DNA from: a virus
Direction: 5' to 3' (one strand)
UHGV virus genome: UHGV-0019417
Length of the DNA: 51,928 nucleotides
Part shown: positions 2,268 to 51,928 of the stretch, one piece after another
How the letters are laid out: every line of letters begins with the position of its first letter
Numbering within the stretch: position 1 is the first letter of the stretch
Translations under genes and position numbers: made by a program
Notes under the pieces: model-generated
What the model saw: only the letters and a program-made list of their open reading frames with translations
Told to the model about the DNA's origin: nothing
Databases searched by the model: none

Positions 2268-2582
2268 TTAATATCCTTCACAATTATTTTCAATTTCAAT
2301 TTTTATGTTTTTTAGGACTTCATCATAATTTTCATTAAGATTTTCTAGACTATGTGAACGAAAGTAATCATTTATAAAAATTTCAGCAATTTCGTGAACG
2401 ACTTTTAATTCCTCTAAATTAAGTGAATAATTTTCGTCGTCATTTAATTTATCGAAAATTTCGTAAATAATTGTTTGATTCAATTTATGTTCTTCGACAA
2501 AAAAGTCAAATAACCATCCCGGAACGTTAAAAGTAATTAAATACTCTTGAACATCGTTAAAAAGTGTGTCTAAAGTGTGCAT
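2268..2582 (-). CDS. hypothetical small early protein; paralog of 1281..1493
   Basis: 104-aa ORF; shared N- and C-terminal motifs with 1281..1493; preceded by class-B promoter repeat copy 2. Confidence 0.5.
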   Translation of the reverse strand: MHTLDTLFNDVQEYLITFNVPGWLFDFFVEEHKLNQTIIYEIFDKLNDDENYSLNLEELKVVHEIAEIFINDYFRSHSLENLNENYDEVLKNIKIEIENNCEGY

Positions 2583-2735: not shown

Positions 2736-3058
2736 GCTGTTAAATTTTGGGCCCATTTGTGAAATAAGGTGTAGGGCCCTGTATATAAGTACTAGTACTC
2801 TGTCGCTCTCTTGCAAAAAAATTTTTAGACTATTCACCAAAATCGCTACAAATCTAAAAAAAATATAAATTTCTATTAAAGGTCAAAATATTTCTCAAAA
2901 ATAAAGCAGGCCCTTTCCAGGCTCGTTAATTTTTGTGAAATCTATCAAAATAAAAAATTAGATTGAATTTAGAATGGTTAAAAAATGTATAAAATAAAGC
3001 AGGCCCCCAGGCAAAAAAGTAGCTTTTGCTATTTACTCTTAGCAAAATTTATAGTTAC

Positions 3059-3525
3059 GAGAAACACAAACTTTTTTGAAAAGTACTGAATTTTTTTTAA
3101 ATTTCGCTCTAACTCATTGATTTTCAATACATTTCTTTTATATGAAAAAAATTCAGTAGAAACAATAATTTTCTTTGTTTCTCTTATTGTTTCTACGTAA
3201 CTCATTGAAAATCAACGACTTAGAGCGAGAGAAACAAAGGAAACAATACTCTCTAAACTTTCAGTGAGTCATTTGTTAAAAATAGAAAATAAATTTTAAC
3301 AATTACGCTCTAGAAAGTTTATAAAGTATTGTTTCCTTTGTTTCTCTTAAAATTTTCGCTCTAACTCATTGAAAATCAATGAGTTAGAGAGAAACAAAGG
3401 GAGAAACAAAGAAAATTCATTGTTTCTCTGAAATTTTTTATAGATTTGTAAAGCGTTGAAAATCAATGAGTTATGAGGCTTTATTGAAATTTTTTTTGTA
3501 CTTTTCAAAAAAGTTTGTGTTTCTC
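3059..3525. repeat. locus 1: about 467-bp imperfect palindrome bounded by 28-bp terminal inverted repeats (GAGAAACACAAACTTTTTTGAAAAGTAC); internal hairpins CTAACTCATTGAAAATCAATGAGTTAG and GAGAAACAAAG iterons
   Basis: 3059-3086 is the exact reverse complement of 3498-3525; multiple copies of CTCATTGATTTTCAA in both orientations; homologous to locus 2 at 28664-28940. Confidence 0.75.
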
Positions 3526-3629: not shown

Positions 3630-3663
3630 ACTACAAATTTTAAAAAAAATATTGTATATTTGC
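3630..3663 (+). promoter_or_regulatory. Bacteroidota-type promoter (-7 TATATTTG at 3656-3663) for the packaging operon
   Basis: TGTATATTTGCAT about 25 nt upstream of ATG at 3688; the ATG at 3652 lies inside the box, so the ORF start is re-called to 3688. Confidence 0.5.
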
Positions 3664-27929: not shown

Positions 27930-28008
27930 TTTAAAAAATTATTCTAGGCTATTCTGAGAGGCTTTATTTTATAAAACGATAGTTTATATTACTTTTATGT
28001 AAAAGCTT

Positions 28009-28047
28009 CCCAGAATAGCCTAGAGTAGCTCTGGGACTATTTTTTTT
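28009..28047 (+). terminator. terminator after the endolysin
   Basis: CCCAGA ... TCTGGG stem followed by TTTTTTTT; a longer 13-bp outer stem CTAGGCTATTCTG/CAGAATAGCCTAG also present. Confidence 0.6.
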
Positions 28048-28060
28048 ATATGTATTTAAT

Positions 28061-28651
28061 ATGAAAGAAAAAATTATATATCTTTGTATATTTGTAGTTA
28101 TCATGATAGCTGCGTTTTTACATGAAAAAAATTATTTAAATACAATACATGAATTAAAGCAAACAAAAATAAGCTTACTTGATTCATTAGAACACTTTAA
28201 AATAAATGATAGCCTAAATGCAGTTACTACCAAATCATTATATTTGACAATAAATGATTTGAAAAAGTATAGAGCTGATGATTATAATTTAATTAAATCA
28301 TTAAAATCTAAAATTGGCTCAAATGAAACAAAAACAATAATCAAACCTGTAATAGAAAATCATACTAGGTTTACAACTCTATATGATACTGTTTATTTAG
28401 ATTCTATTAAAAGCTTCAAGTATAATAATAAATGGACAGATTTAAAAGGAACTGTTTATAAAGATTCAATATATATAGATATTAAAAACAAAGAAGAGTT
28501 AATCATAACAGAAAATCTTATTAAGAAAAAATTCTTGTTTTTTAAATTGCCAGTTAAGTTATTTGGTTACAAATCTAAAAATATATCAGTGATTAGCAAA
28601 AATCCAAATACAAACGTCATAAAAGTTGAGTATGTTAATATATCAAAATAA
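28061..28651 (+). CDS. membrane-anchored protein (N-terminal TM)
   Basis: 196 aa, signal-anchor IIYLCIFVVIMIAAFL; could be a spanin-like lysis accessory. Confidence 0.4.
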   Translation: MKEKIIYLCIFVVIMIAAFLHEKNYLNTIHELKQTKISLLDSLEHFKINDSLNAVTTKSLYLTINDLKKYRADDYNLIKSLKSKIGSNETKTIIKPVIENHTRFTTLYDTVYLDSIKSFKYNNKWTDLKGTVYKDSIYIDIKNKEELIITENLIKKKFLFFKLPVKLFGYKSKNISVISKNPNTNVIKVEYVNISK

Positions 28652-28663
28652 AATTGCAAATAA

Positions 28664-28940
28664 GGAAACAAAGAGAAACAAAGAGAATTTTTATTGTTTC
28701 TCTCTAAAGTGTTGAAAATCAATGAGTTAGAGCAAGAGAAACAAAGGAAACAATAATTTCTTAACTTTCGTGAGATAATATTTTTATACAAATATTAACA
28801 TAGAGGCTACTCTAGAAAGTTTATAAAGAATTGTTTCCTTTGTTTCTCTTGCTCTAACTCATTGATTTTCAACGCTTTAGAGAGAAACAATAAAAATTCT
28901 CTTTGTTTCTCTTGCTCTAACTCATTGATTTTCAATGCTT
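28664..28940. repeat. locus 2: near-perfect inverted repeat (arms about 75 bp) plus an extra tandem half-copy, with GAGAAACAAAG iterons and CTCATTGATTTTCAA hairpins; homologous to locus 1
   Basis: 28672-28747 is about 97% the reverse complement of 28830-28905; 34-bp unit TCTCTTGCTCTAACTCATTGATTTTCAAYGCTTT repeated at 28840 and 28907. Confidence 0.8.
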
Positions 28941-29045
28941 TAACATACTTTAACAAAATAATTTATGTTTATTCACTAAAAAAATTTTATTATTTAATAT
29001 ATAGTCATTACTTTTGCAGTAACAAATTAAAAAAATAAAGCTTAT

Positions 29046-29471
29046 ATGACAACTAACAATTTTACAATCGATGTTAATAAAATCATTGAGCATTATAATC
29101 TAGATAAAGATAAAGTTGCTGAGGCACTTTTTCCTAACAATAGATATAAGAAAATTGCTCTTGATAGAATTTTAACTGGAAAAGCTGTAATAGATGCAAA
29201 TCAGATAAATGCTTTATCTGATATGATAGGAGTATTACCTCAAGAATTATATATGATAAATAATTGGAGAGGAGAATTTGAAGATAAAAGTATTATTCTT
29301 AAACAAAATGAATATACTGCAAAGCTAAATCATAATGGAGCATTTTTATCTTTATATAAAAATAATGATTTGGTATATCAAGAAATAAATGCTTCAAATA
29401 TATCATTAAATGATTTGATTATTTACTTAGATAACTTAATTAAAAAATTACAAAACAATGGAACCCTTTAA
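29046..29471 (+). CDS. hypothetical protein
   Basis: 141-aa ORF, first gene after locus 2. Confidence 0.4.
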   Translation: MTTNNFTIDVNKIIEHYNLDKDKVAEALFPNNRYKKIALDRILTGKAVIDANQINALSDMIGVLPQELYMINNWRGEFEDKSIILKQNEYTAKLNHNGAFLSLYKNNDLVYQEINASNISLNDLIIYLDNLIKKLQNNGTL

Positions 29472-29787
29472 ATTTTCAATTGATGTAAACATTAATCTAC
29501 AAAGTGAATTAGCAGAAGTACTTAAACAATTTATTAAAGCACAATCCACTGCTGCTCCTGCTGCTCCTGCTGCTCCTGCTGCTCCTGCTGCTCCTGCTGC
29601 TCCTGCTGCTCCTGCTGCTCCTGCTGCTGAAATAACTATAAATGATGTACGCAAAGAATTAGCTAAAAAAGTTAATGAGCACCGTACAGAAATTAAAGAT
29701 AAGCTTATAGAATTGGGTGCACCATCAGTAACAAAACTTGATAAATCTAAATATCAGGAAATGCTTAACTTTTTAAATGCACTATAA
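29458..29787 (+). CDS. hypothetical two-domain protein with an (AAP)8 linker
   Basis: 109-aa ORF; 9-bp tandem repeat GCTGCTCCT x8 at 29551-29622. Confidence 0.4.
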   Translation: MEPFKFSIDVNINLQSELAEVLKQFIKAQSTAAPAAPAAPAAPAAPAAPAAPAAPAAEITINDVRKELAKKVNEHRTEIKDKLIELGAPSVTKLDKSKYQEMLNFLNAL

Positions 29788-29916
29788 TTATGCCAAAATC
29801 AAAAATAAAATTGCTAAGAAAAGCTTCTTCAGACTTTAAAAGGTTTTATGAACCGATTATTTTTAGTAAAAAGCTAAATGAAGATATATATTTAATAAAA
29901 ATACAATATAACAGAT

Positions 29917-31146
29917 ATGCCAACTTTGAAAGTAAAGCCTTCATCAATAAAAGCAAAACAGCATTTGGAATTGCATGAAAATAGGCCTCACGCGTTATTA
30001 AGTGCTTCTGGTTCAAGCAGATGGATAAATTGTACACCTTCTGCAAAACTTGAAGAAAAATATGGCAAACAGACAACTTCAGTCTATGCACAAGAAGGAA
30101 CACTAGCACATGAAATTTCAGAGCTATATATTAAGCATGATATACTTCACAGCATTGATGCCGAAGAATTTTCACATCAGCTCGAAATGCTCATGGAAAA
30201 TGAGTTGTTTAACGAAGAAATGTTAAGCGTAATTCCAATATATGTGGATTACTGTGCTTCTGAATACAAATCAGCTAAATCACAGAATAGTGAAGCTATT
30301 ATGGAAATTGAACAAAAATTGGATTTAACTGAATATGTACCAGAATCATTTGGAACTGCCGACTGTATAATTATTAGCGATGGAACAATCGAAGTAATAG
30401 ACTTGAAATATGGAAAAGGAGTTCCTGTATATGCTGATGCAAATAGACAACTAATGCTTTATGGGTTAGGTGCATTAAGAAAGTTTGACGTGATGTATGA
30501 TATACAAAATATCAAACTGGCAATTGTTCAACCGAGAATAAATAATATATCAACTTGGCAAATAAGTGTAAAAGACTTAATGCATTGGGCTGAAACAGAA
30601 TTAAAGCCAGCAGCAAAATTAGCTTTTGAAGGAAAAGGTGAAATAAAAGCTGGTAGTTGGTGTAAGTTTTGCTCAGTTAAAAATCAATGTAAAGCATTAG
30701 CTGAACAGCAATTAGAAATTGCAAAATATGAATTTAAAAAGCCAGAGTTTTTAAGTGACGATGAAATATCAGATATATTAAAAAGAGCGCATAAATTCAT
30801 AGAATGGATTAACAGCATTGAAGAATATGCTCAAACTGAAGCCTACAATGGCAATAAAGTTTGGCCAGGATTTAAAGTAGTTGAAGGCATAAGTAGAAGA
30901 AAATGGGTTGATGAAGAAAAAGTAATTGATACATTATATTCTAGATTCCCTGAACTATCTGATGACCAAATCTTTGATACAAAACTTGTTTCTATATCTC
31001 AGATAGAAAAGTTATTGGGTAAAAAAACAGTTCAAGAAAAATTAGGTGATGTAATTATAAAGCCACAAGGTAAACCAACATTGGTGCCTGATACAGATAA
31101 AAGGCCATCTATCGGTATTGAAGATGCGATTAATGATTTTAAATAA
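29917..31146 (+). CDS. PD-(D/E)XK nuclease, DUF2800/Cas4-like phage exonuclease
   Basis: N-terminal LSASGSSRWINC motif; acidic/lysine catalytic core (DCIIISDG..IDLKYGKG); C-terminal Cys cluster CKFCSVKNQC. Confidence 0.75.
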   Translation: MPTLKVKPSSIKAKQHLELHENRPHALLSASGSSRWINCTPSAKLEEKYGKQTTSVYAQEGTLAHEISELYIKHDILHSIDAEEFSHQLEMLMENELFNEEMLSVIPIYVDYCASEYKSAKSQNSEAIMEIEQKLDLTEYVPESFGTADCIIISDGTIEVIDLKYGKGVPVYADANRQLMLYGLGALRKFDVMYDIQNIKLAIVQPRINNISTWQISVKDLMHWAETELKPAAKLAFEGKGEIKAGSWCKFCSVKNQCKALAEQQLEIAKYEFKKPEFLSDDEISDILKRAHKFIEWINSIEEYAQTEAYNGNKVWPGFKVVEGISRRKWVDEEKVIDTLYSRFPELSDDQIFDTKLVSISQIEKLLGKKTVQEKLGDVIIKPQGKPTLVPDTDKRPSIGIEDAINDFK

Positions 31147-31912: not shown

Positions 31913-31998
31913 GCCTCAGTGGTGAAAGTGGTAGACACGAAAGACTTAAAATCTTTTAAACAGAAATGTTTGTGCAGGTTCGAATCCTGTCTGAGGTA
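31913..31998 (+). tRNA. tRNA-Leu (anticodon UAA), type II with a long variable arm
   Basis: acceptor GCCTCAG/CTGAGGT (G1-U72), D-arm GTG-AAAGTGGTAGA-CAC, anticodon arm AAAGA-CTTAAAA-TCTTT, 17-nt variable hairpin, T-arm GCAGG-TTCGAAT-CCTGT, discriminator A. Confidence 0.8.
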
Positions 31999-32020
31999 CA
32001 AAATTCTAAGATTAATTTAT

Positions 32021-34074: not shown

Positions 34075-36456
34075 ATGAATGTTAAATATGATATAAATTT
34101 AGACATAGCGACTGCTCTTAGTGGTAATAGTAAAAAATGGAAAAATATAAAAACCAAATGGAGTAAGCTACTCGATAAATTATCAAATCCAGTAATTACA
34201 AATGAAACATATAAACAGTTTATTACAGCTACAAAAGCCGAGCAAGGAAAAATAAAAGATGTAGGTGGATACGTAGGAGGGTATTTATTAAATGGAAGCA
34301 GAAAAAAAGAAGCTGTATCATATAAGCAACTCATTACTCTTGATATTGATTTTTCTCACTGTGATTTTTGGGATGACTTTACTATCTTATACAGTTGTGC
34401 AGCATGTATACATTCAACCCATAAATCAACACCTTCTAAGCCTAGGCATAGATTAATAATACCACTAGATAGAGAAGTTTCAGTTGAAGAGTATGAACCA
34501 ATAGCTAGAAAAATAGCAGGAGACTTAAACATAGAGCTGTTTGACCAAACAACATTTGAAGTAAACAGATTAATGTTTTGGCCATCAGTTTCTAAAGATA
34601 CTAAATATTATTTTGAATATCAAGATGGTCCTATTTTAAGTGCTGATGATATTTTAAATTCTTATAATGATTGGCATAACATAAATGAATGGCCACATGC
34701 TAGCTCGATTGAGTCTTCTGTTTTATCAGAAATAAAAAAACAAGAAGACCCATCAGAGAAAAAAGGAATAATTGGTGCTTTTTGTAAAGCTTACAGCATA
34801 AATGAAGCAATAGAAACTTTTTTGAATGATGTTTATGAAGAAGCAGGAGAAGATAGGTATACATATACAAAAGGAACAACTGTAGCAGGCCTTATCGTTT
34901 ATGATGATAAGTTTGCTTATTCTCATCATAGTACTGACCCAGCTAGTAATAGGCTATGCAATGCTTTTGATTTAGTTCGTATACACTTATTTGGCCATTT
35001 AGATTCTGGAACAGAAAAAGATGACAGAAGTAAAAAGAGCTTTAAAAAAATGGAAGAGCTTATCATTAATGATAAGAAGACAAAAAAGCTCATAGCTGAA
35101 GAAAAACTTGTATTAGCTAAATCAGAATTTGGTGAACCAGTTGAGCAAGATAATATTGAATGGACAGAAAGCTTACAGATTAATTCAAAAGGAGATTACG
35201 AAAATTCTTCAATTAACTTAAATTTAATTCTTAAAAATGACAATATTCTTAAAAATGCTTTTGTAACAAACCAATTTGACCACATGCGCTATGTGCTAAA
35301 AGATTTACCTTGGCGTAAACTTGAAAGCTATCCTGATAATATGCTTGATGTTGATTATTCTGGTATAAGAAACTATATTGAGTGTGTATATGGTATTACA
35401 GCAAGTCAGAAAATTGATGATGCAATAGCAATTGAGTGTCAAAGAAAAAACTTTCATCCAGTAAGAGAATATTTAAATAATTTAAAATGGGATAAAGTAA
35501 ATAGAATTGATACACTGTTAATCGATTATTTTGGAGCTGACGACAATGCTTATACAAGAGCTGCTATTAGAAAAGCTTTATGTGCGGCTGTAGCTCGTAT
35601 AATAGAACCAGGGTGTAAATATGATATGGTTTTAATTCTTGTTGGTCCACAAGGAACATATAAAAGTACATTTGTAAAAAAACTTGGTAAAAATTGGTTT
35701 TCAGATACTTTTACGACAGTCCAAGGTAAAGAAGCTATTGAGCAATTATTAGGTTCATGGATTATTGAAATAGCTGAGTTATCAGCTTTTAAAAAATCTG
35801 AAGCTGAAGCTATTAAACAGTTTATTTCAAAACAACAGGATAAGTTTAGACCAGCTTATGCTCGTACTGTTGAAGTTTATAAAAGGCAATGTATATTTTT
35901 TGGTACAACAAATGATACAGATTTTTTAAGAGACCCGACAGGAAATAGACGTTTTAATCCTATTGATATTCACGTTGAAAGAATTAAAAAATCTGTAATT
36001 GATGATTTAACAGAAAACGAAATAGACCAAATATGGGCCGAAGCTTTTGAGCTTTATAAAGCTGGAGAAAAGCTTTATTTTGATGAAGAAGTTACTCAAT
36101 TAGCTAAAACTGAACAGTCAAAGCACTCTGCTACAGATGAACGAAAAGGCGTTATTGAAAATTATTTAAATAAATTATTACCAAAGGATTGGGATAAAAA
36201 AGATTTATATGAACGTAGAACATGGTTGGATGACCCATTGGCAAGTAATGGCGAAATAATACGTGACAGCGTTTGCATATCAGAAATCTGGTGTGAATGT
36301 TTAGGAAAAGAAAAAAATGATATGACGCGCTATAATACAAGAGAAATTAATGATATAATGCGCTCATTAGATGAATGGGAGTTTACATCTTCTACAAAGC
36401 AATTTAACTTTTATGGCAAACAAAAATATTACAAAAGAAAAACTGATTTATGGTAA
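34075..36456 (+). CDS. primase/helicase, VirE / D5-like P-loop NTPase
   Basis: 793 aa; Walker A LVGPQGTYKST; large N-terminal primase-like domain; typical partner of the DUF2800-PolA module. Confidence 0.65.
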   Translation: MNVKYDINLDIATALSGNSKKWKNIKTKWSKLLDKLSNPVITNETYKQFITATKAEQGKIKDVGGYVGGYLLNGSRKKEAVSYKQLITLDIDFSHCDFWDDFTILYSCAACIHSTHKSTPSKPRHRLIIPLDREVSVEEYEPIARKIAGDLNIELFDQTTFEVNRLMFWPSVSKDTKYYFEYQDGPILSADDILNSYNDWHNINEWPHASSIESSVLSEIKKQEDPSEKKGIIGAFCKAYSINEAIETFLNDVYEEAGEDRYTYTKGTTVAGLIVYDDKFAYSHHSTDPASNRLCNAFDLVRIHLFGHLDSGTEKDDRSKKSFKKMEELIINDKKTKKLIAEEKLVLAKSEFGEPVEQDNIEWTESLQINSKGDYENSSINLNLILKNDNILKNAFVTNQFDHMRYVLKDLPWRKLESYPDNMLDVDYSGIRNYIECVYGITASQKIDDAIAIECQRKNFHPVREYLNNLKWDKVNRIDTLLIDYFGADDNAYTRAAIRKALCAAVARIIEPGCKYDMVLILVGPQGTYKSTFVKKLGKNWFSDTFTTVQGKEAIEQLLGSWIIEIAELSAFKKSEAEAIKQFISKQQDKFRPAYARTVEVYKRQCIFFGTTNDTDFLRDPTGNRRFNPIDIHVERIKKSVIDDLTENEIDQIWAEAFELYKAGEKLYFDEEVTQLAKTEQSKHSATDERKGVIENYLNKLLPKDWDKKDLYERRTWLDDPLASNGEIIRDSVCISEIWCECLGKEKNDMTRYNTREINDIMRSLDEWEFTSSTKQFNFYGKQKYYKRKTDLW

Positions 36457-36743
36457 AAATAGAAAGCGAAAAGTTAATCGAAAGAAAATTAGTAGAATCA
36501 TGTAAATTAAATAATGGGCTGTGCATAAAATTATTAAGTAACTTTTTTATAGGATTACCAGATAGAATGTGCTTATTCCCTGGTGGAAAAATAATATTCG
36601 TAGAATTAAAAACAACAGGCCAAAAACCAAGAAAATCTCAAATACTTGTTCACAATCAATTACAAAAATTAGGATTTAAAGTATTTGTAGTCGATACGAC
36701 TGAGCAGATTATAGAACTGATTGATAAAATCATAAAATTATGA
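36450..36743 (+). CDS. VRR-NUC domain nuclease
   Basis: 97 aa; GLPDRMCLFPGGKIIFVELKTTGQKPRKSQ matches VRR-NUC core (PD..E.K). Confidence 0.65.
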   Translation: MVKIESEKLIERKLVESCKLNNGLCIKLLSNFFIGLPDRMCLFPGGKIIFVELKTTGQKPRKSQILVHNQLQKLGFKVFVVDTTEQIIELIDKIIKL

Positions 36744-38319: not shown

Positions 38320-39261
38320 ATGGAAAGAAAATATAAGCTAACTGATAAGCACATTCAATATAATAGGCACAAACTTTATCGAATACAGGCTCTTAAGTCT
38401 TTCGCTGATGTTAAAGAGGGAGATTTTGGTGGATACATAGAATCAGAGGATAATCTCTCGCATAATGGGACGTGTTGGGTCTATGATAATGCTGTGGTAT
38501 ACGACAATGCTAAAGTATTCGATAGTGCTAATGTATTTGGTAATGCTGTGGTATATGGCAATGCTGATGTACTTAATAATGCTGAGGTTTATAATACAGC
38601 TGAAGTATATGGCAATGCTAAAGTATATGGCAATGCTAAAGTGTATGGTTGTGCTGAGGTACATCGTAATGCTGAAGTGTATGGCTACGCCGAAGTGTAT
38701 GGTAATGCTGAAGTATATGATAATGCTGAAGTATGTGGCAATGCTAGAATCTGTGGTGATGCTAAGATATATGACTATGCTTGGGTCTATGGCAATGCTA
38801 AAATCAGTGGTGATGCTAATATCTATGATTATGCTAGAATCTGCGGTGATGCATATATTTTAGAAAATGCTAAAGCCTGTGACCACGTTAAGGTAAGTGG
38901 ATATGCTGAGATACGTGGCTATGCTAAGGTATACGGTATTGCTAAAGTACGTGGTGATGCTAAAGTATATGGTTATGCTGAAGTACATGGTAATGCTGAG
39001 GTATATGGCCATGCTGAAATGTACGGTAATGCTGCAGTCTGTGAAAATACTGATTACATAGTATTTAAAAACTGGTGGAGCAGCGGGCGATATTTCACAT
39101 GGACACGTAGTAATAATATGTGGAAGGTAGGATGTTTTTATGGTACAGGAGAAGAGCTAATAATGAAAGCATATAATGATAGTAAAGAAAGTGGAAGAGA
39201 ATACGAACGAGTTGTAAAATATGTTGAAAGCATACTTGCTGATGATAATTACGCAGAATAA
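38320..39261 (+). CDS. hexapeptide-repeat (predicted beta-helix) protein with C-terminal globular domain
   Basis: about 30 consecutive xVYGNA(E/K) hexads (aliphatic at i, small at i+4), encoded by 18-bp DNA tandem repeats 38480-39060; C-terminal 90 aa non-repetitive. Confidence 0.6.
   Translation: MERKYKLTDKHIQYNRHKLYRIQALKSFADVKEGDFGGYIESEDNLSHNGTCWVYDNAVVYDNAKVFDSANVFGNAVVYGNADVLNNAEVYNTAEVYGNAKVYGNAKVYGCAEVHRNAEVYGYAEVYGNAEVYDNAEVCGNARICGDAKIYDYAWVYGNAKISGDANIYDYARICGDAYILENAKACDHVKVSGYAEIRGYAKVYGIAKVRGDAKVYGYAEVHGNAEVYGHAEMYGNAAVCENTDYIVFKNWWSSGRYFTWTRSNNMWKVGCFYGTGEELIMKAYNDSKESGREYERVVKYVESILADDNYAE
38480..39060 (+). repeat. 18-bp coding tandem repeat array GTRTATGGYAATGCTRAR
   Basis: about 32 imperfect units in frame within the 38320..39261 CDS. 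Confidence 0.8.
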
Positions 39262-40140: not shown

Positions 40141-41910
40141 ATGACTACAAACAACAATTATTTGCTAATTACACTAGGCCACAACTCATCTGCATTATTT
40201 ATTGATAACACAAACGGGTGTGACCAAAAAATTATTGGCTATGAACAAGAAAGACTTTCAAGAATTAAATCTGATAGCCAATTTCCATTTGATGCAATCA
40301 ATGAAATTAAAAAGCATGTACCATTTTCTAAATTAGAGGGATGCCAAATACGAATTTCTCACTGGTTTGATGACTTTCTTCCTTCTAGCAATAAGTATAT
40401 TGGTGAAAATGGATTCAGAATGCTAAAAGAAATTTCTACAAATATTGTAGATACTAATGGCAATGGCTTTACACACCATGACGCTCACGCTTATAGTGCA
40501 TATAATTTTATGCTAGAATCGAATACTGATTTGAAGTATTTTAACAAACCAATATATTGTATTGTAGCAGATGGTTTTGGTAATCAGCAAGAAGTTTTTT
40601 CAATTTACGCATTTACACCAAATATTGATACAAAACCAAAGTGTATTTTTAAATCCTACGGCTATTATCAATCTCTTGGTTTGATGTACCAATTTGCAAC
40701 ATCATTTGTTGGAATGAAAGAAAACCAAGATGAATATAAATTTTTAGGATATGAATCACATATCGCTGAAGTTTTAAGTGAGCAACAAATTGCAATGCTA
40801 ACATCTGTTGCTGAATTTGATTCTGACAAAATGATAAAAAGAATAAAAGAGTGCACAGAAAAAATTCAAATTTCAGATATTGATAAAAATATTGGAATCA
40901 GTATTTCTGATTTAGATAAAGCTCGAGATTTATTCAATCATTTATTCTCAAGAGTTTTTAAACATTTAGGCATTGATAAAGATAATAATATTCATATTTC
41001 AAGAGTTATAATGGGATATTATGTACAATGCATCATAGAATCTGTTATTACTAGCTTTATTGATGAATATGAAATGAATAATGTCTGCGTTGCTGGTGGA
41101 TGTTTCTACAATGTAAAATTAAACAATTCAATACTTGAAGCAATAGATGGTTATTTTAGTGCTATGCCTTTAGCAGGAGACCAAGGAGCAGCAATAGGAA
41201 TGTATGCAAAAGAAGTCGGATTTAATTCTAATATTTCTATTAAGTTTAATACGCTGAATTTTGGTAAAAGAAATTTCTATAATGCAGACAAACTAGTATC
41301 TAAAATAAACAATGCATATTATTTTACAAACAGTAAATATGCAGCTATGGCAATATCAGATTTTATTTCAAATGATTGTATTGTTAATATAATACATAAT
41401 GATATGGAATTTGGTCCAAGAGCATTGGGGCATACTTCAACTTTATTTTTGCCAACAGAAGAAAATGTGGCATTTGTAAATTATATAAATAACAGAAATG
41501 AAGTTATGCCATGTGCACCTATATGTACAATTGGAAGTGCTCATGATTTATTTGACATCTATGAATTATCAAGGACAGTCGGTTCTGATAGATTTATGAT
41601 TTGTACACATAAGTATATGAGAAAATATAATAAGCTTTATGGTGGTGTAATGCATAAAAAACCTTTGATTAAAGATTATACTGGAAGACCACAAATTGTA
41701 ACAAAAAATGAAAATTTCTTATATACAATTCTAGAATCTGTTAAAAAAGATACAGGCTATACATGCTTAGTTAATACTAGTTTTAATGTACATGGCCAAC
41801 CTATTGTATTTGATATACACAGTATTATTCAGAATTTTATGTATCAGCAAGCACAAACTTATACGCATAAATTCAATAAAAAAGTTGTATTGGTAATTAT
41901 TAATGATTAA
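40141..41910 (+). CDS. carbamoyltransferase, NodU/CmcH/TobZ family (Kae1-like N-domain plus YrdC-like C-domain)
   Basis: 589 aa; N-terminus LLITLGHNSSALFID....IIGYEQERLSRIKSDSQFPFDAI matches the carbamoyltransferase N-terminal signature (LG.HDS..AL...G....A..EER..R.K.D..FP). Confidence 0.65.
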   Translation: MTTNNNYLLITLGHNSSALFIDNTNGCDQKIIGYEQERLSRIKSDSQFPFDAINEIKKHVPFSKLEGCQIRISHWFDDFLPSSNKYIGENGFRMLKEISTNIVDTNGNGFTHHDAHAYSAYNFMLESNTDLKYFNKPIYCIVADGFGNQQEVFSIYAFTPNIDTKPKCIFKSYGYYQSLGLMYQFATSFVGMKENQDEYKFLGYESHIAEVLSEQQIAMLTSVAEFDSDKMIKRIKECTEKIQISDIDKNIGISISDLDKARDLFNHLFSRVFKHLGIDKDNNIHISRVIMGYYVQCIIESVITSFIDEYEMNNVCVAGGCFYNVKLNNSILEAIDGYFSAMPLAGDQGAAIGMYAKEVGFNSNISIKFNTLNFGKRNFYNADKLVSKINNAYYFTNSKYAAMAISDFISNDCIVNIIHNDMEFGPRALGHTSTLFLPTEENVAFVNYINNRNEVMPCAPICTIGSAHDLFDIYELSRTVGSDRFMICTHKYMRKYNKLYGGVMHKKPLIKDYTGRPQIVTKNENFLYTILESVKKDTGYTCLVNTSFNVHGQPIVFDIHSIIQNFMYQQAQTYTHKFNKKVVLVIIND

Positions 41911-41916
41911 GCAAAA

Positions 41917-42576
41917 ATGAAAAAGCTATATACTCCATACATTGTAGCTTTTTCTGGTGGTTGTTTTTCTGGTAAAACAACCACCATTAAAAAAATTGCT
42001 GAAAAATTAAGGCAACTTGGCTATACTGTATATGTTTTAAATGAAAATATAAGGGACAAAAATGTATTTAGAAAAGCAGGTAATATAGATAATATTAGGC
42101 AAGACCCGAATTCTTATTTGCTTTTACAAAATGAAATAATAAGAGAAAAAATAGAAAATGAAAATGAAATATTGGGAGTTAAATACACTACTAAAACTAT
42201 AATTTTAGTTGATAGGGCTTTAACTGATTCATTGTTTTATTTATCATGCTATGTTGACAAAGTTAATCTAACACTAGAAAATAAAAAAACATTTAAGCAT
42301 CTGTTTAGTTATATTTATATGATTCTTTTACTCAGTAAAAGGTATGATAAAGTATTAGAATTTAGGCCTATAAAAATTGAAAATATCGATAAATACAGGC
42401 CTAAAGATTTAGAGCATTTGCACTTTTTTGAGTATGAAATGATTCATTGCCTTAACAATAATTTTTTTGATAAAAGCATTATGGAAAAAAATATAAACAT
42501 AAAGCAAGAAAGCTGTATAGATAATTTAGTAAATAATATAATAAGAGATTATGCAATTAAACAACGAACAAATTAA
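41917..42576 (+). CDS. P-loop kinase, deoxynucleotide/deoxynucleoside-kinase-like; candidate modified-dNMP or 5-hmdU DNA kinase
   Basis: Walker A AFSGGCFSGKTTT; DRA lid-like motif (VDRALTD). Confidence 0.5.
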   Translation: MKKLYTPYIVAFSGGCFSGKTTTIKKIAEKLRQLGYTVYVLNENIRDKNVFRKAGNIDNIRQDPNSYLLLQNEIIREKIENENEILGVKYTTKTIILVDRALTDSLFYLSCYVDKVNLTLENKKTFKHLFSYIYMILLLSKRYDKVLEFRPIKIENIDKYRPKDLEHLHFFEYEMIHCLNNNFFDKSIMEKNINIKQESCIDNLVNNIIRDYAIKQRTN

Positions 42577-43333
42577 AAATTTAATAACATCTCCACATTG
42601 GCAAAAAATATTTAAGCAATTATATAATTCAAAAAATTCAGAAAATGATAGCTGTTTTGAGTTAATCGGATTTCAATATTCATTTAACCCACGAAAAAAT
42701 TATATAATATCAAGAAATAAATTAGTTTTTGATATAGAGAAAGCTGCAAAAATGTATTATTGGTATAAAAATAAAAACAGTAGTGATAAATCAATAATTG
42801 ATAGCTTTCCTGAATATGAAAATTGTTTTTATGGAGGAAAATTTTTAAGTAAACAAAAATGCAATTCTAATTATGGAATATATGCATATAATAAAAATGG
42901 ATTAGATTTTTGTATTGAAAAGTTAAAAGCAAATTATAAAACAAGGCAAGCTTGCTTTTGTATAAATAATAATAAAGCAATGTCTTCACCAGATAAACTT
43001 TGTACAAATACAATTCATTTTAATATAAAAAATGAGAGACTGATTATGGTTATACAAATGAGGTCATCAAATTTTTTAACTTTACTTCCTTATGATATTT
43101 TTAACTTTACAATTTTTTATGCTTATGTGTATGAAGCTTTAAGAGATTATTATTTTAATTTGAAAACGTGCGATATTGTAATGCAAATAAACTCATTGCA
43201 CTGTTATACAAAAGATTTAATAAAAGCTATTGGTATAAAAGATTTATCTTATCCAAATAATCTTTTAAGCTTTTCTGTTAAAAAAATAATAAATAATTTT
43301 GAAAATAATTTAAAAAGATGCAACGAACAATGA
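42551..43333 (+). CDS. divergent ThyA-family protein (thymidylate synthase / pyrimidine hydroxymethylase fold)
   Basis: IQMRSSNFLTLLPYDIFNFTIFYA aligns to ThyA QRSxDxFLGxPFNIASYALL; Cys in QACFC aligns to PCH; the residue at the ThyA Asn177 position is not Asn/Asp. Confidence 0.5.
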   Translation: MQLNNEQIKNLITSPHWQKIFKQLYNSKNSENDSCFELIGFQYSFNPRKNYIISRNKLVFDIEKAAKMYYWYKNKNSSDKSIIDSFPEYENCFYGGKFLSKQKCNSNYGIYAYNKNGLDFCIEKLKANYKTRQACFCINNNKAMSSPDKLCTNTIHFNIKNERLIMVIQMRSSNFLTLLPYDIFNFTIFYAYVYEALRDYYFNLKTCDIVMQINSLHCYTKDLIKAIGIKDLSYPNNLLSFSVKKIINNFENNLKRCNEQ

Positions 43334-43839
43334 CACCAGGAAAATTTAGATTTACAAAAGTACGTGATGTAAAATCACCAGTTAGAGGTACAAACTTATC
43401 TGCTGGTATTGATTTTTTTGTACCAAAAGATTTTAAGCCATTTGTTCTTTTGCCACATAAGGATGTGTTAATCCCGTCTGGTATTAAAGCCTCATTTGAA
43501 AAAGTTTGTATGCTAATGGCAGCAGAAAAATCAGGCGTAACAAGCTCAGCTGAAGCAAAAGCTATTTCTAATATGGATGCTAATAATTCATACCAATCAC
43601 CTACAGTTTTAGGAGCAAAGATTGTTGATGCAGATTATCAAGGAGAAATACACATCCACATTATAAATGTAGGTAATAAACCTATTCTTATTGAGCCAGA
43701 CAAGAAAATAGCTCAGTTTATTTTAGTGCCTGTTTTATATTGCGAAATTGAAGAGATAGATTCAGAAAAAGAATTGTTCGCAAATGAATGCTCTTCTCGT
43801 GGTAACAAAGGTTTTGGTAAAGGAACTGGTGAAAATTAA
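43318..43839 (+). CDS. dut: dUTPase (trimeric dUTPase/dCTP-deaminase superfamily)
   Basis: motif I SAGIDF, motif III GAKIVDADYQGE, motif IV IAQFILVPV. Confidence 0.8.
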   Translation: MQRTMTPGKFRFTKVRDVKSPVRGTNLSAGIDFFVPKDFKPFVLLPHKDVLIPSGIKASFEKVCMLMAAEKSGVTSSAEAKAISNMDANNSYQSPTVLGAKIVDADYQGEIHIHIINVGNKPILIEPDKKIAQFILVPVLYCEIEEIDSEKELFANECSSRGNKGFGKGTGEN

Positions 43840-43844
43840 ATGAT

Positions 43845-44297
43845 ATGACAATTGGAAAAGCTTTAGAGTTAGTAGACACTCCTGTATTTTTGCAGAATGT
43901 TGAAAAATACTTAAATAAATGGCTATATTTAGCTAAATTGCCCAATGGGCCGTTAGGAAGATGGCTTTGTGAATATCAGCAAATGGAAGATAAAGGATTA
44001 TTTAAGCCTGCTATCTTTAAAGCTTTTTATAAATTAGAATTGCAAAGCAAGTTAAATATAGGCTTTATAAAAAGTTGTCCAGTTCATTATGTTGGTGTAT
44101 ATGCTATGGATGATACATATTTATATTATAGCTTACGAGAGCATAGTTATAAAATATGTGTTATTACAGGAGAAATAGCATGTGATGATGATGGTGATGA
44201 TTTAATAGGTTTATCTTATGATGAAGCTAAAGAAATTTGTGATTCTATGAATATTGAAGCTGAAGAAAAATTATTTAAAATAATGGTAAATGATTAG
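43845..44297 (+). CDS. hypothetical protein
   Basis: 150-aa ORF inside the nucleotide-metabolism cluster; acidic C-terminus. Confidence 0.4.
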   Translation: MTIGKALELVDTPVFLQNVEKYLNKWLYLAKLPNGPLGRWLCEYQQMEDKGLFKPAIFKAFYKLELQSKLNIGFIKSCPVHYVGVYAMDDTYLYYSLREHSYKICVITGEIACDDDGDDLIGLSYDEAKEICDSMNIEAEEKLFKIMVND

Positions 44298-44949
44298 TCT
44301 AATATGTAAAAATGCTACAGAAGCTTTTGAGATATTGTATGAAACAATTTCAAGAGTTGGCCAATCTACTAATATAGATACAAAAGCTATTTATAATGTA
44401 AGTATTGAAATACAAAATCCAACCGATAGAAATATAACAACACATTGGAGAAAATGGAGTAAAAAATATGCTGAAAGAGAATGGAACTGGTATTTATCAG
44501 CAAATCCTTCTGTACAAGAAATTAAAAAGTTTGCTCCTATGTGGGATAAAATGCACAGCGGAAATAATATTGTAAATTCAAATTATGGCTTCCAATGGTC
44601 AAGAAACAAGCAACTACAAAAAGTAATTGAACAACTACAAAAAAATCCTAATTCTCGTCAAGCATGGATTACTATCTACGATGGAAAAGAAAAAGATAAT
44701 TATGATTTTGATACACCTTGCACATTAGCTGTAGGATTTGATATAAAGCCAAATAGCGAATCAGTTGATATGACAGTGTGTATGAGGTCAAATGATTTAA
44801 TATATGGATTTTGTAATGACCAGTATTGTTTTAGTAAATTACAAGAATATGTAGCTCATCTTTTAAACAGGCCAGTTGGAACATATACTCATTTTGCACA
44901 TGACATGCATATTTATAATAATAAACTTAACTTAAAAAATTATGAATAA
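44290..44949 (+). CDS. ThyA-family enzyme, uracil-type (thymidylate synthase or dUMP hydroxymethylase)
   Basis: YGFQWS, NPNSRQAWITIY, catalytic DTPCTL (PCH equivalent), MRSNDLIYGFCNDQYCF (QRSxD..G.PFN), HIYNN with Asn at the ThyA N177 position; short at 219 aa. Confidence 0.75.
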   Translation: MISLICKNATEAFEILYETISRVGQSTNIDTKAIYNVSIEIQNPTDRNITTHWRKWSKKYAEREWNWYLSANPSVQEIKKFAPMWDKMHSGNNIVNSNYGFQWSRNKQLQKVIEQLQKNPNSRQAWITIYDGKEKDNYDFDTPCTLAVGFDIKPNSESVDMTVCMRSNDLIYGFCNDQYCFSKLQEYVAHLLNRPVGTYTHFAHDMHIYNNKLNLKNYE

Positions 44950-50225: not shown

Positions 50226-50380
50226 TAGTTAATCACAAACAATTGGATTAATTTGTTTTGCTAACATAATTTTAGGTTAAAGCTGACTGCCTGTGAAGGT
50301 CGTCAGCTTTTATTTTGTTTCTTTGTATATAAATTTGGTTTTTATTTATTTTATAATTAAAGAATATATAAAATGAGTTC

Positions 50381-50475
50381 TGTGAGCTACTCTGAGCGCT
50401 CTGGAGATGCTTTTTTATTTTTGACGATAACTTTTATTACTTTTATATAAAAACGTCTCCAGAGCGCTCAAAATA
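50381..50475. terminator. terminator region between the convergent rightward late and leftward early transcription units; contains degenerate copies of the GTCTCCAGAGCGCTC terminator family
   Basis: AGCTACTCTGAGCGCTCTGGAGATGCTTTTTT matches the 3' half of the terL terminator; 50448-50475 matches the left arm of the 47041 terminator. Confidence 0.45.
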
Positions 50476-50571
50476 GCTAATATTTCCAAATATATCTAAT
50501 GTTAAACGAGGTTTTTTATACAAACATAAAAATAAGCCAAGCAAACTATTTTCTAGTATGCTTGGCTTAAA

Positions 50572-50880: not shown

Positions 50881-51166
50881 TGAGCATTTTGTTTATGGCT
50901 AAGTTTGATTTGATTGTTTTCAATAAATCATTCAAATCAAATTTAACATAGTCAATTAAGCCTGGTTCTGTATCAAAGTGAGCTTCATACTTATCTATTA
51001 AAAACAAAGCGAAGTTATATATCGTAAACAAATCTCTAAAGCTTGTATTACTAATAGCCTCGTAAGTCTTAATAATCATATCAAGGTCTTCTTTGCTAAA
51101 CCAACACATCAAATCGACTTGCAAAAATATAGCCAACTTGTGTTTACTTTTCTCATCTAATTTCAT
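50870..51166 (-). CDS. hypothetical small early protein; paralog of 51274..51591
   Basis: 98 aa; shares WFSKEDL..I.K.YEA.S.T.F and INKMLN C-terminus with 51274..51591; preceded by class-A leader. Confidence 0.5.
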   Translation of the reverse strand: MKLDEKSKHKLAIFLQVDLMCWFSKEDLDMIIKTYEAISNTSFRDLFTIYNFALFLIDKYEAHFDTEPGLIDYVKFDLNDLLKTIKSNLAINKMLNDK

Positions 51167-51290
51167 AATTTTAGGGTTGTTTTATGTTCTAGGCAATGTC
51201 GCCTATTGTTCCCTATAGCAGATTCGAACTGCTCTACTTTCGTATCCACCCAACTGTGGCTAGGGATATAAGCCTAATTAGACTTATTAA
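51167..51290 (-). repeat. class-A leader repeat copy (d); tRNA-like core at 51211-51265
   Basis: CATAATTTTAGGGTTGTTTTATGTTCTAGGCAATGTCGCCTATTGTTCCCTATAGCAGATTCGAACTGCTCTACTTTCGTATCCACCCAACTGTGGCTAGGGATATAAGCCT, near-identical to copies b and c. Confidence 0.8.
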
Positions 51291-51591
51291 GCATTTTATT
51301 TATAACATAACTAGGTTTAGTTGCTCTTAACAACCTAGTTAGCTCAAATCTAATAAAATCAAATGCTTCTTGGCTTTCTACGTTAAAGCCCGCATTAACA
51401 TATTGATTTATCAAAAACCAAGCGAAATTACGTGTCTTAGTTTTCGTAGGTGCTTCAAATTTAGTAGAGCTAAGAGCCTCGTATACTTTCATAATAAAAG
51501 CGAGGTCTTCTTTGCTAAACCAAGACATCATATTGACCTCATACACTTTAGTGATAAAAACGAGGTCTTTACGTCCTTCAGTTGATTCCAT
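51274..51591 (-). CDS. hypothetical small early protein; paralog of 50870..51166
   Basis: 105-aa ORF preceded by class-A leader copy (c). Confidence 0.5.
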   Translation of the reverse strand: MESTEGRKDLVFITKVYEVNMMSWFSKEDLAFIMKVYEALSSTKFEAPTKTKTRNFAWFLINQYVNAGFNVESQEAFDFIRFELTRLLRATKPSYVINKMLNKSN

Positions 51592-51715
51592 AATTTTAGG
51601 GTTGTTTTATGTTCTAGGCAATGTCGCCTATTGTTCCCTATAGCAGATTCGAACTGCTCTACTTTCGTATCCACCCAACTGTGGCTAGGGATATAAGCCT
51701 TTATTTAGGCTTTTT
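51592..51715 (-). repeat. class-A leader repeat copy (c); tRNA-like core at 51646-51690
   Basis: identical core sequence to copy d. Confidence 0.8.
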
Positions 51716-51890
51716 TGGTTTTCGTAAAATTTAAGTTTACTTGCCACTTTGAGAATAGCAAGGCGAGTTCCATTTCTTTTTCGTGGTCTGTAAATCGCCA
51801 CTTGAGCCCAATTCCCATGGCTATTTTACATTCTGAATCAATGACTTCACACTTTGTTTCGTAGTAAGCCTTGTTTGTAATAATTTTCAT
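51705..51890 (-). CDS. hypothetical small early protein
   Basis: 61-aa ORF; its upstream class-A leader spans the window junction (51891-51928 plus 1-88). Confidence 0.45.
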   Translation of the reverse strand: MKIITNKAYYETKCEVIDSECKIAMGIGLKWRFTDHEKEMELALLFSKWQVNLNFTKTKKA

Positions 51891-51928
51891 AATTTTAGGT
51901 TTTTTATGTTCTAGGCAATGTCGCCTAT
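51891..51928 (-). repeat. class-A leader repeat copy (b), 5' part; continues seamlessly at window positions 1-88 (tRNA-like core at 5-59)
   Basis: ...GGCAATGTCGCCTAT | TGTTCCCTATAGCAGATTCGAAC... reproduces the copy c/d sequence across the end/start junction. Confidence 0.8.

Follow-up and report, generated by a model that had tools for sequence, protein, structure and literature searches.

To our knowledge, replication origins are essentially unmapped for Bacteroidota phages, and literature searches on origins in Bacteroides phages or in DUF2800/DUF2815 modules returned nothing usable. The closest described systems are those of the staphylococcal pathogenicity islands (SaPIs), whose Rep proteins are self-loading initiator-helicases that recognize short iterons through a C-terminal winged helix (PMC9371898). 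SaPI origins lie immediately downstream of rep and contain 6-12 penta- or hexameric iterons and an AT-rich centre, with at least two iterons per side in opposite directions; Reps load themselves, probably as two hexamers flanking the AT-rich region (PMC9371898). In the current study, we analyzed the 51,928-nucleotide (nt) virus genome UHGV-0019417 (the whole of this stretch is called the window), which is that of a gut Bacteroidota-type phage, and in particular a repeat-rich intergenic module at positions 28664-28945, termed Locus 2, that sits at the head of the replication module of the phage. With moderate confidence, and from sequence comparison, we read Locus 2, together with a twin at 3059-3525 (Locus 1), as an origin module, duplicated in the genome, on which the self-loading primase-helicase (PriRep) encoded by the phage would initiate replication.

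An earlier annotation made from the letters of this stretch (the original prediction) had placed the arms of a long inverted repeat at 28672-28747 and 28830-28905, about 80 bp apart. A repeat search upheld the inverted repeat but not its extent: those coordinates are the outer part of arms of 104 nt, and because pairing of the arms runs on inward, the gap between them is 35 nt instead of ~80. The elements of the module, its twin and the two genes most often referred to below are the following.

28664-28945, no strand: whole dyad module (Locus 2), with the same order of elements in the twin locus and in relatives
28671-28774, no strand: left arm of the long inverted repeat, 104 nt, complementary to the right arm at 97/104 positions (93%)
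28810-28913, no strand: right arm of the long inverted repeat; six pairs are changed on both sides among relatives, none in slid controls
28755-28830, no strand: centre between the inner iterons, 76 nt, the proposed melting region; the unpaired spacer proper is 28775-28809
28738-28753, plus strand: inner left iteron pair GAAACAA-AG-GAAACAA (28738, 28747), pointing toward the centre; GAAACAAAGGAAACAA is invariant in 14/14 aligned arms
28831-28846, minus strand: inner right iteron pair TTGTTTC-CT-TTGTTTC (28831, 28840), pointing toward the centre, from the heptamer map
28665-28700, no strand: outer left iterons, with direct GAAACAA at 28665 and 28675 (10-bp period) and an inverted copy at 28694; hairpin AGAGAAACAA...TTGTTTCTCT
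28884-28909, no strand: outer right iteron hairpin, GAAACAA at 28884 (plus) and 28903 (minus)
28702-28732, no strand: P1, a 31-bp imperfect palindrome CTCTAAAGTGTTGA-AAA-TCAATGAGTTAGAG with the core TTGA-N3-TCAA
28852-28882, no strand: P2, the reverse complement of P1
28915-28945, no strand: P3, in the second 42-nt direct repeat and outside the long inverted repeat
28838-28942, plus strand: two 42-nt direct repeats (28838-28879 and 28901-28942), 98% identical, with a 63-bp period
28940-29016, plus strand: downstream flank with TTAACA-N4-TTAACA, an AT-rich stretch and a Bacteroidota-type -7 box TACTTTTG (29009-29016), conserved in relatives at 69% protein identity
3059-3525, no strand: twin module (Locus 1), upstream of the terminase/structural operon, with its elements in the order of Locus 2, 10 GAAACAA heptamers and an 84-nt centre (3247-3330)
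29046-29471, plus strand: first gene after the module, encoding a 141-aa protein with an N-terminal XRE-type helix-turn-helix (HTH), a candidate regulator
34075-36456, plus strand: primase-helicase of the PriRep type, 793 aa, the proposed iteron reader and initiator, with residues 375-722 matching SaPI1 Rep1

From left to right, the module is composed of an iteron hairpin, P1, two inward-pointing iterons, the centre, two further inward-pointing iterons, P2, a second iteron hairpin and P3. The nested hairpin AGAGAAACAA-(12 nt)-TTGTTTCTCT was found as predicted, at 28672-28703 and 28881-28912, and so were the direct iterons GAGAAACAAAG, in four exact copies. The sequence formerly described as a half-hairpin, CTCTAACTCATTGATTTTCAA, is present, but it is half of a 31-bp imperfect palindrome (P) that occurs three times; likewise, what had been called an extra 34-bp tandem unit is indeed a repeat, and proved to be the second copy of the 42-nt direct repeat. 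When the Locus 2 strand was folded, an energy of -108 kcal/mol was obtained, compared with -26.5 ± 3.3 kcal/mol for 200 shuffles (z = -25). An assembly artefact is ruled out by the presence of the repeat in over 20 metagenome assemblies that are independent of one another and derive from human gut and wastewater samples.

The locus does not stand alone in the genome, since a twin of the same build is located at 3059-3525. GAAACAA heptamers occur 37 times in the 51.9 kb, counting both strands; 9 are in Locus 2 and 10 in Locus 1, and the other 18 are spread at 0.35 per kb. Outside Locus 2, exact copies of GAGAAACAAAG are confined to 3173-3411, where there are five, joined by a one-mismatch copy at 3418; with one mismatch allowed, 11 matches were counted in the genome versus 1.8 expected. 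Locus 1 has a nested palindromic structure, with 100% complementarity between its outermost arms of 28 nt (3059-3086 and 3498-3525), and it contains four full-length P-type palindromes, of which one is a perfect 31-bp copy (3359-3389); of a further site, at 3107-3127, only one half is preserved, the other having degenerated. The centres of the two loci lie 25,504 bp apart on the 51,928-bp circle, or 49% of its circumference, and the ends of the window join within a repeated cassette, consistent with a circular assembly. The centre of Locus 2 has a GC content of 22.4%, compared with 29.6% for the genome, and duplex stability has a local minimum there (94th percentile). Only five 40-mers of the genome are less stable than the AT-rich one from 28963, just right of Locus 2, and the AT-rich stretches to the right of the two loci rank 1 and 6 among the least stable.

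No DNA match to positions 28000-30000 was found among 50,697 GenBank phages, and relatives were therefore sought through proteins. Close relatives were taken from ~52-kb contigs found via proteins 69-100% identical to the 141-aa open reading frame (ORF); sequences compared are cited by the handles L003 to L171. In an alignment of these relatives, the arms were highly conserved, and the centre diverged freely. Across their outer 84 positions, the two arms pair without a single mismatch in L145 and L146/147 (the 87% and 69% relatives, respectively), and 86 of the 104 arm pairs never vary. Six pairs were altered on both sides, five of them in P1/P2 of the 69% lineage (L146/147), and no outer pair was broken; a count of six compensatory pairs was reached by 2/500 shuffles and was 0 in every slid control (5 distinct sequences). 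That the complementarity of the outer 84 nt has been kept by compensatory change suggests that the arms pair at some stage, either as a cruciform or as a hairpin in single-stranded DNA. In the 69% lineage (L146), P1 is the exact reverse complement of P2, whereas the direct copies P2 and P3 differ, and inverted copies are thus kept alike more tightly than direct ones. Moreover, in the variant L155 conversion has made the left inner arm exactly complementary to the right one. The orientation of the centre was identical in 8/8 strain-level contigs that span it. Four metagenome contigs of independent origin (L143, L155, L156 and L157) start or end inside the inverted repeat, which probably marks an assembly break at the palindrome and not a physical DNA end.

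The long near-perfect repeat, which is central to the original prediction, is not, however, the conserved feature. In three contigs (L141/L142/L144) a natural 63-bp deletion has removed P2 and one hairpin and so shortened one arm, indicating that the full 104-nt symmetry is dispensable, and distant relatives keep the inverted iteron pairs only, without the long pairing. A pattern search for the paired iterons found only six IMG/VR contigs, all of this phage group. A related-locus search with the single 141-aa protein returned no loci; when an alignment of this protein was used, a wider set of 15 loci was obtained, of which 13 were analyzable. All 13 of these IMG/VR loci have two iterons, a centre of 70-100 nt and two opposed iterons, located upstream of an HTH gene whose product is only 34-49% identical to the 141-aa protein. 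IMG/VR contigs with flanking proteins ~43% identical have the same layout at both syntenic loci. The word used as iteron is lineage-specific, namely GAAACAA, GAAACAG (L161) or TAAACAA (L160, L167-L171). P is not universal in the phage family: L158 has kept the iterons, the hairpins and the HTH gene, and P is absent from it.

Among cultured phages, the nearest relatives are BF503P1 (L021) and its kin, phages of Bacteroides fragilis with a PolA 67% identical. At the syntenic site of BF503P1 there is no long repeat and there are no AAACAA iterons; its equivalent intergenic regions (325-501 and 28037-28223) have 131 bp in common at 82% identity in direct orientation and a 40-mer at 95% in inverted orientation, and they contain different repeat words (CATTTTRCYA-like). 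PriRep homologues number at least 7,994 at E <= 1e-20, and the best 120 of them are 65-100% identical, many on ~50-kb contigs; by these protein matches, the phage belongs to a very large gut group.

A candidate reader of the iterons is encoded by the phage itself. PriRep contains a VapE-like domain and belongs to PHROG primase and helicase families, and its Rep1-like residues 375-722 match PDB 7PDS (E=1.6e-74), which is SaPI1 Rep1 bound to DNA (PMC9371898). An AlphaFold model of its last 110 residues (predicted local distance difference test, pLDDT, 86) has helix and beta-hairpin elements, and residues ~735-793 (nt 36277-36453) are predicted to form a winged helix. When this model was compared with the PDB, the only significant matches were six 7PDS chains (E 5e-5 to 3.5e-4, query-normalized template-modelling score 0.65-0.74, 109-123 aligned columns); generic winged-helix DNA binders matched only at E above 0.03. 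Covariation of this domain with the iteron word was assessed in PriRep proteins from ten lineages as the ratio of C-terminal identity to identity of the rest of the protein. The ratio was lowest, at 0.61-0.81, for pairs with BF503P1, which has no AAACAA iterons; it was 0.81-0.94 for GAAACAA versus GAAACAG lineages and ~1.0-1.2 for other pairs. In the putative recognition helix, the residues are RYNTRE in the GAAACAA lineages, as against NFNTKD in L161 and RFNSRG in BF503P1. These comparisons do no more than suggest a C-terminal domain that covaries, partially, with the iteron word.

The candidate-origin half of the earlier inference is thus backed by separate evidence, given that the number and orientation of the iterons and the AT-rich centre match the layout of SaPI Rep-type origins and that a helicase of this kind is encoded. 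From these likenesses we infer which protein would bind which element, where the DNA would melt and that replication would start at the module. The C-terminal winged-helix domain of the 793-aa PriRep would read the GAAACAA heptamers, and the converging orientation of the inner pairs, one pair to the left and one to the right of the centre, could allow a pair of helicase rings to assemble in opposed orientation. The rings would then melt either the 76-nt centre or the very AT-rich stretch just downstream, and the fused primase, PolA and a gp2.5-like single-stranded-DNA-binding protein (SSB), all encoded downstream, would start bidirectional synthesis. The outer iteron hairpins and the P palindromes may be accessory sites, either for extra copies of the initiator or for a DNA-bending or regulatory protein.

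Several points weigh against an origin of this kind. Of five sequence-testable features of the SaPI-type class, Locus 2 shows four, and position does not fit: the module lies 5.1 kb upstream of the start of the helicase gene. Its iterons, at seven nucleotides, are longer than the penta- or hexamers of SaPI origins, the AT enrichment of the centre is modest (22% versus 30% GC), and two modules per genome are not predicted by the SaPI model. The link between C-terminal domain and iteron word comes from about five lineages, with few independent events; the G-to-T change at the first iteron position is not accompanied by a matching change in the domain, and the domain of L161 resembles those of the TAAACAA lineages. 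With an XRE-like HTH gene directly after the module and three dimer-type palindromes inside it, a regulatory role is equally natural. Also, a classical direct-repeat array is present elsewhere, at 1123-1211, where a non-coding stretch of the leftward early cluster holds 5.2 tandem copies of the 17-bp TTCATTATTGTTATAAG (95% match); it is an alternative candidate for the origin, or else a regulator site. Relatives carry tandem arrays of unrelated sequence (L017, 1608-1674; L021, 47119-47222).

The foremost alternative, to which we assign a distinct but minor probability and which takes up the other half of the earlier inference (a multi-site operator for a dimeric regulator), is that the module is an upstream control array. 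In it, a phage regulator, either the XRE-type HTH protein encoded next to the module or some early protein, would bind P and/or the heptamers at both loci. Looping is one way in which such an array would time or insulate the two long rightward operons (structural from ~3688, replication from 29046), and service as an upstream site of activation or silencing is another. The identity of the first downstream gene speaks for it, in that the AlphaFold2 model of the 141-aa protein shows a five-helix XRE/Cro-CI-like domain (pLDDT 85-94 over residues 10-70); its fold matches (3op9, the N-terminal domain of Stl, C.BclI, C.AhdI and the N-terminal domain of TP901-1 CI, at a root-mean-square deviation of 2.1-2.7 A) are weak, however, with E ~0.1, and the match to Pfam HTH_19 has an E of 0.19. 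The Bacteroidota -7 consensus is TAnnTTTG, and boxes matching it were found 30-55 nt upstream of many start codons, including those at 29009-29016 and 3655-3662, so that both modules lie upstream of host-type promoters. No such box occurs within 28664-28945, the 35-nt spacer included, and P3 lies ~64 bp upstream of the -7 box at Locus 2 as compared with ~180 bp for the last P at Locus 1, showing that the spacing is not conserved. Moreover, the recognition helix of the HTH protein is identical in L161 (GAAACAG) and L162 (GAAACAA) and nearly invariant across lineages while their iterons change. As in Cro/CI or C-protein operator arrays, an XRE-type HTH gene adjoins palindromes with an odd central spacer; the sites here differ from those arrays in that they do not overlap a promoter and, for the iterons only, in that the recognition helix does not track their changes. 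A more natural target of the HTH protein than the iterons would be TTAACA-N4-TTAACA (28940-28955), a candidate operator located between the repeat and the promoter of the replication operon; its 10-11 bp spacing is kept in L146, L160 and L168-L171, not in all lineages.

The P palindromes bear on the same alternative, as they are dyads of the kind that dimers bind. When the pattern TAA[CG]TC[AG]TTGA-N3-TCAA[CT]GA[CG]TTA was searched in species-representative bacterial genomes, it was found in 119 stretches (L022-L140), many of them in Fibrobacter, Saprospiraceae, Microscillaceae, Lentisphaeria and Akkermansia, and also in unrelated IMG/VR contigs (L003-L020). About 0.5 would be expected in the bacterial genomes by chance, an estimate that ignores the general excess of hairpins in genomes and so leaves the size of the enrichment uncertain. 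Among the 82 bacterial copies that could be classified with crude gene calls, 41 lay between divergent genes, 34 between tandem genes and 7 between convergent genes, and the arms were perfectly complementary in 51 of 120 copies. A function as terminator was rejected with only 7/82 copies between convergent genes, as was that of an operator for a conserved neighboring gene, since the 99 neighboring ORFs have no family in common (5 integrases, 2 Rep3 proteins, the rest diverse). Several bacterial copies are located directly 3' of tRNA genes beside integrases, and two beside Rep3 initiators. With mostly divergent or tandem positions, imperfect arms and diverse neighbors, P behaves like a dyad for a putative binding protein rather than a terminator. 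A P half-site fits the consensus of integration host factor (IHF), WATCAANNNNTTR, and by our reasoning the geometry of the dyad does not fit a symmetric IHF site; in the full-text literature, the half-sites occurred only in primers and in lists of predicted IHF sites. Enrichment of bacterial copies in divergent and depletion in convergent intergenic regions favor the control array, and so does the 131-bp segment common to the two equivalent regions of BF503P1. L158, with the HTH gene and iterons but no P, does not, and with only two sites per genome the array would imply that replication and structural genes are co-regulated.

It is improbable, although compatible with several of the observations, that the module is a cis-acting site of replication or recombination at which synthesis does not start, such as a crr-like enhancer (as in phage P4) of a distant origin, a place where forks are blocked or terminate, a centromere-like site, or a cruciform-forming hot spot on which the recombination proteins of the phage act, namely the DUF2800 exonuclease, the gp2.5-like annealing protein and a Holliday-junction-resolvase-like nuclease (36450-36743). 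The spacing of the modules by 49% of the circle would suit such a site, as would the tighter upkeep of inverted than of direct repeats in L146, the converted left inner arm of L155 and the presence of genes for the resolvase-like nuclease and the recombination pair. However, neither a Par protein, a recombinase, an integrase nor a protelomerase was detected among the genes of the window, no rearranged isomers were seen among the contigs examined, and the iteron layout fits the loading of an initiator more specifically.

A role at the RNA level is very improbable. Here, read-through from the lysis genes would fold into a ~240-nt hairpin that acts as an RNase III processing site, a 3' stabilizer or an insulator between late and replication genes. 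The flanking genes are all on the plus strand and the repeat begins 13 nt past the stop codon of the DUF6549 gene, and both the extremely stable predicted fold and the six compensatory pairs would be expected of such an element. Against it, every compensatory change gives a Watson-Crick pair on either strand, and the 86/104 pairs that never vary show a conservation of sequence beyond the needs of pairing, while the centre diverges. Locus 1 has no upstream plus-strand gene to read through from, and distant relatives keep the iterons and not the long pairing. A terminator scan found no T-run terminator in the repeat, and an Rfam search returned only a tRNA at gathering score; at relaxed E-value there were sub-threshold matches to plant microRNA hairpins, as any long hairpin would give. 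An intrinsic terminator and a known RNA family were rejected on these results.

Finally, a selfish palindromic insertion of the kind of a miniature inverted-repeat transposable element, or an invertible switch of the Bacteroides type, is scarcely credible despite the two copies with long terminal inverted symmetry and the P-type palindromes at contig ends in one Saprospiraceae metagenome-assembled genome, because both copies are syntenic in relatives with flanking proteins only 43% identical, the paired-iteron pattern is restricted to these two sites and to the six IMG/VR contigs of this phage group (on which a host-derived element was rejected as well), the spacer has the same orientation in all 8 spanning contigs and holds no promoter box, and no recombinase gene was found. 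A protelomerase target (telRL) was likewise rejected, as the 35-nt centre is not palindromic and no gene for the enzyme was found.

The position of Locus 2 between lysis genes and replication operon had been recognized correctly. Genes for a holin (27044), an amidase (27501) and a DUF6549 protein (28061-28651) precede it, and downstream follow the 141-aa ORF, a 109-aa ORF and genes for the DUF2800 PD-(D/E)XK exonuclease, the gp2.5/Enc34-type SSB, tRNA-Leu, PolA, the 793-aa primase-helicase, a small nuclease and an SNF2 helicase. The 3' end of the PriRep gene, at 36456, lies within the following ORF, which starts at 36450. GC skew was uninformative, since almost every gene lies on the same strand. 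The second gene of the operon for replication (29458-29787) includes a perfect 9-bp repeat of 8.9 copies (29549-29628) that encodes (PAA)n; the gene product varies from 94 to 120 aa among strains, and relatives have (SK/ES)n in place of (PAA)n. The tRNA-Leu (anticodon TAA) occupies 31913-31999, just upstream of the PolA coding region; since the listed start of the PolA ORF (31874) overlaps it, the actual start is probably near 32020. Further along, ORF 38320-39261, which has beta-solenoid, bactofilin and hexapeptide-like Pfam matches, contains a long 18/54-bp periodic repeat (38482-39033), and the genes at 40141-44949 are suggestive of DNA base hypermodification: a carbamoyltransferase (40141-41910), a kinase-like P-loop protein (41917-42576), a dUTPase (43318-43839) and two thymidylate-synthase/dCMP-hydroxymethylase-like genes (42551-43333 and 44290-44949). 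A third sizeable inverted repeat, with 62-nt arms 71% complementary and the core GAGCGCTCTGGAGA, is located at 50357-50506, where the rightward and leftward gene sets converge, with two canonical terminator-like hairpins beside it; it has no words in common with Loci 1 and 2.

The leftward early region next to Locus 1 has repeats of its own. A cassette of 136 nt, 93% identical among copies, precedes each small leftward gene (566-650, 51140-51275, 51565-51700, and 51885-51928 joined to 1-77) and holds TTTTATGTTCTAGGCAATGTCGCCTAT and, on the minus strand, the tRNA T-arm-like GCAGTTCGAATCTGC. The conserved hairpin AAAGCCATAATCGCTG...CAATTATGGCTTT was found three times just 3' of leftward ORFs (1215-1261, 2143-2193 and 2197-2255), and two of these ORFs are preceded by copies of one promoter region of ~100 bp that contains a TATATTTG box (1830-1930 and 2620-2720); these hairpins and duplicated promoters look like modular promoter/stem-loop cassettes. 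The first leftward gene beside Locus 1 (2268-2582, minus strand) encodes a strongly acidic 104-aa protein with close homologues only and a weak Pox_D5 match (E=0.04). It resembles an early protein of the DNA-mimic or anti-restriction kind, and its acidity and narrow range of homologues led us to drop it as a candidate DNA binder. Between the leftward operon and Locus 1 (2740-3010), GC-rich hairpins, e.g. GGGCCCATTTGTGAAATAAGGTGTAGGGCCC and AAAGCAGGCCC...GGC repeats, stand in a region of 26% GC.

If Locus 2 and its twin are indeed origins for PriRep, the paradigm of the self-loading SaPI helicase would extend from staphylococcal satellites to full-size phages of another phylum, the words GAAACAA, GAAACAG and TAAACAA would form a natural specificity series for iteron recognition by a winged helix, and the module could supply parts for engineering of Bacteroides phages or for shuttle replicons. 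The module is a concrete candidate origin with a named initiator domain and a lineage-variable 7-nt word. A broader proposal, which we consider doubtful, is that this abundant family of ~50-kb gut phages replicates from two equivalent, near-opposite origins, each a dyad capable of cruciform formation with arm pairing under selection and a SaPI-type initiator, and that P is one of a class of palindromes that spans several phyla (Fibrobacter, Saprospiraceae, Akkermansia, diverse phages), is located in promoter regions and is recognized by a widely conserved protein that binds or bends DNA.

Several known origins resemble the module in part. In satellite phage P4, ori and crr are read by the alpha primase-helicase through a C-terminal origin-binding domain, crr being a set of direct repeats a few kb from ori. 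A primase-helicase with a C-terminal origin-binding domain (predicted in the present phage) and the same iteron in two separate non-coding loci of one replicon are common to P4 and the present phage, but here each of the two loci is a dyad, the two are built alike and about half the genome separates them. Dyad-symmetric origins are known from simian virus 40 and papillomavirus, with their superfamily 3 helicases, and from herpes simplex virus (oriL and oriS), which has more than one origin copy and in oriL a long palindrome; short inverted initiator-binding repeats around a centre for two helicase rings are the likeness, whereas the DNA-binding domains of the initiators, the hosts and the iterons are unrelated and no homology is claimed. 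The origins of phages of lactic acid bacteria, found via phage-resistance ('Per') plasmids, are non-coding, repeat-rich and functionally shown. Like Locus 2, they are intergenic regions beside replication genes with dense direct and inverted repeats, but their repeat layout and initiators differ. The SaPI origins are matched by the homology of PriRep to Rep1 and its structurally matching predicted C-terminal winged helix, by the fusion of initiator and primase as in PriRep5, by the 9-10 short iterons per module (inside the 6-12 range) and by the AT-rich centre of ~76-84 nt with at least two opposed iterons on each side. They differ from the present modules, found in a Bacteroidota-type host and in a 52-kb virulent-looking phage instead of a satellite island, in lacking the extra P palindromes, the iteron hairpins and the long dyad symmetry kept by compensatory change. 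What is new relative to SaPI-type iteron origins is the phylum, the type of replicon, the heptamers, the position, the two opposed copies, the palindromes and the compensatory complementarity of the arms; the duplicated, opposed placement and the compensatory upkeep of the arms are the unusual elements among these.

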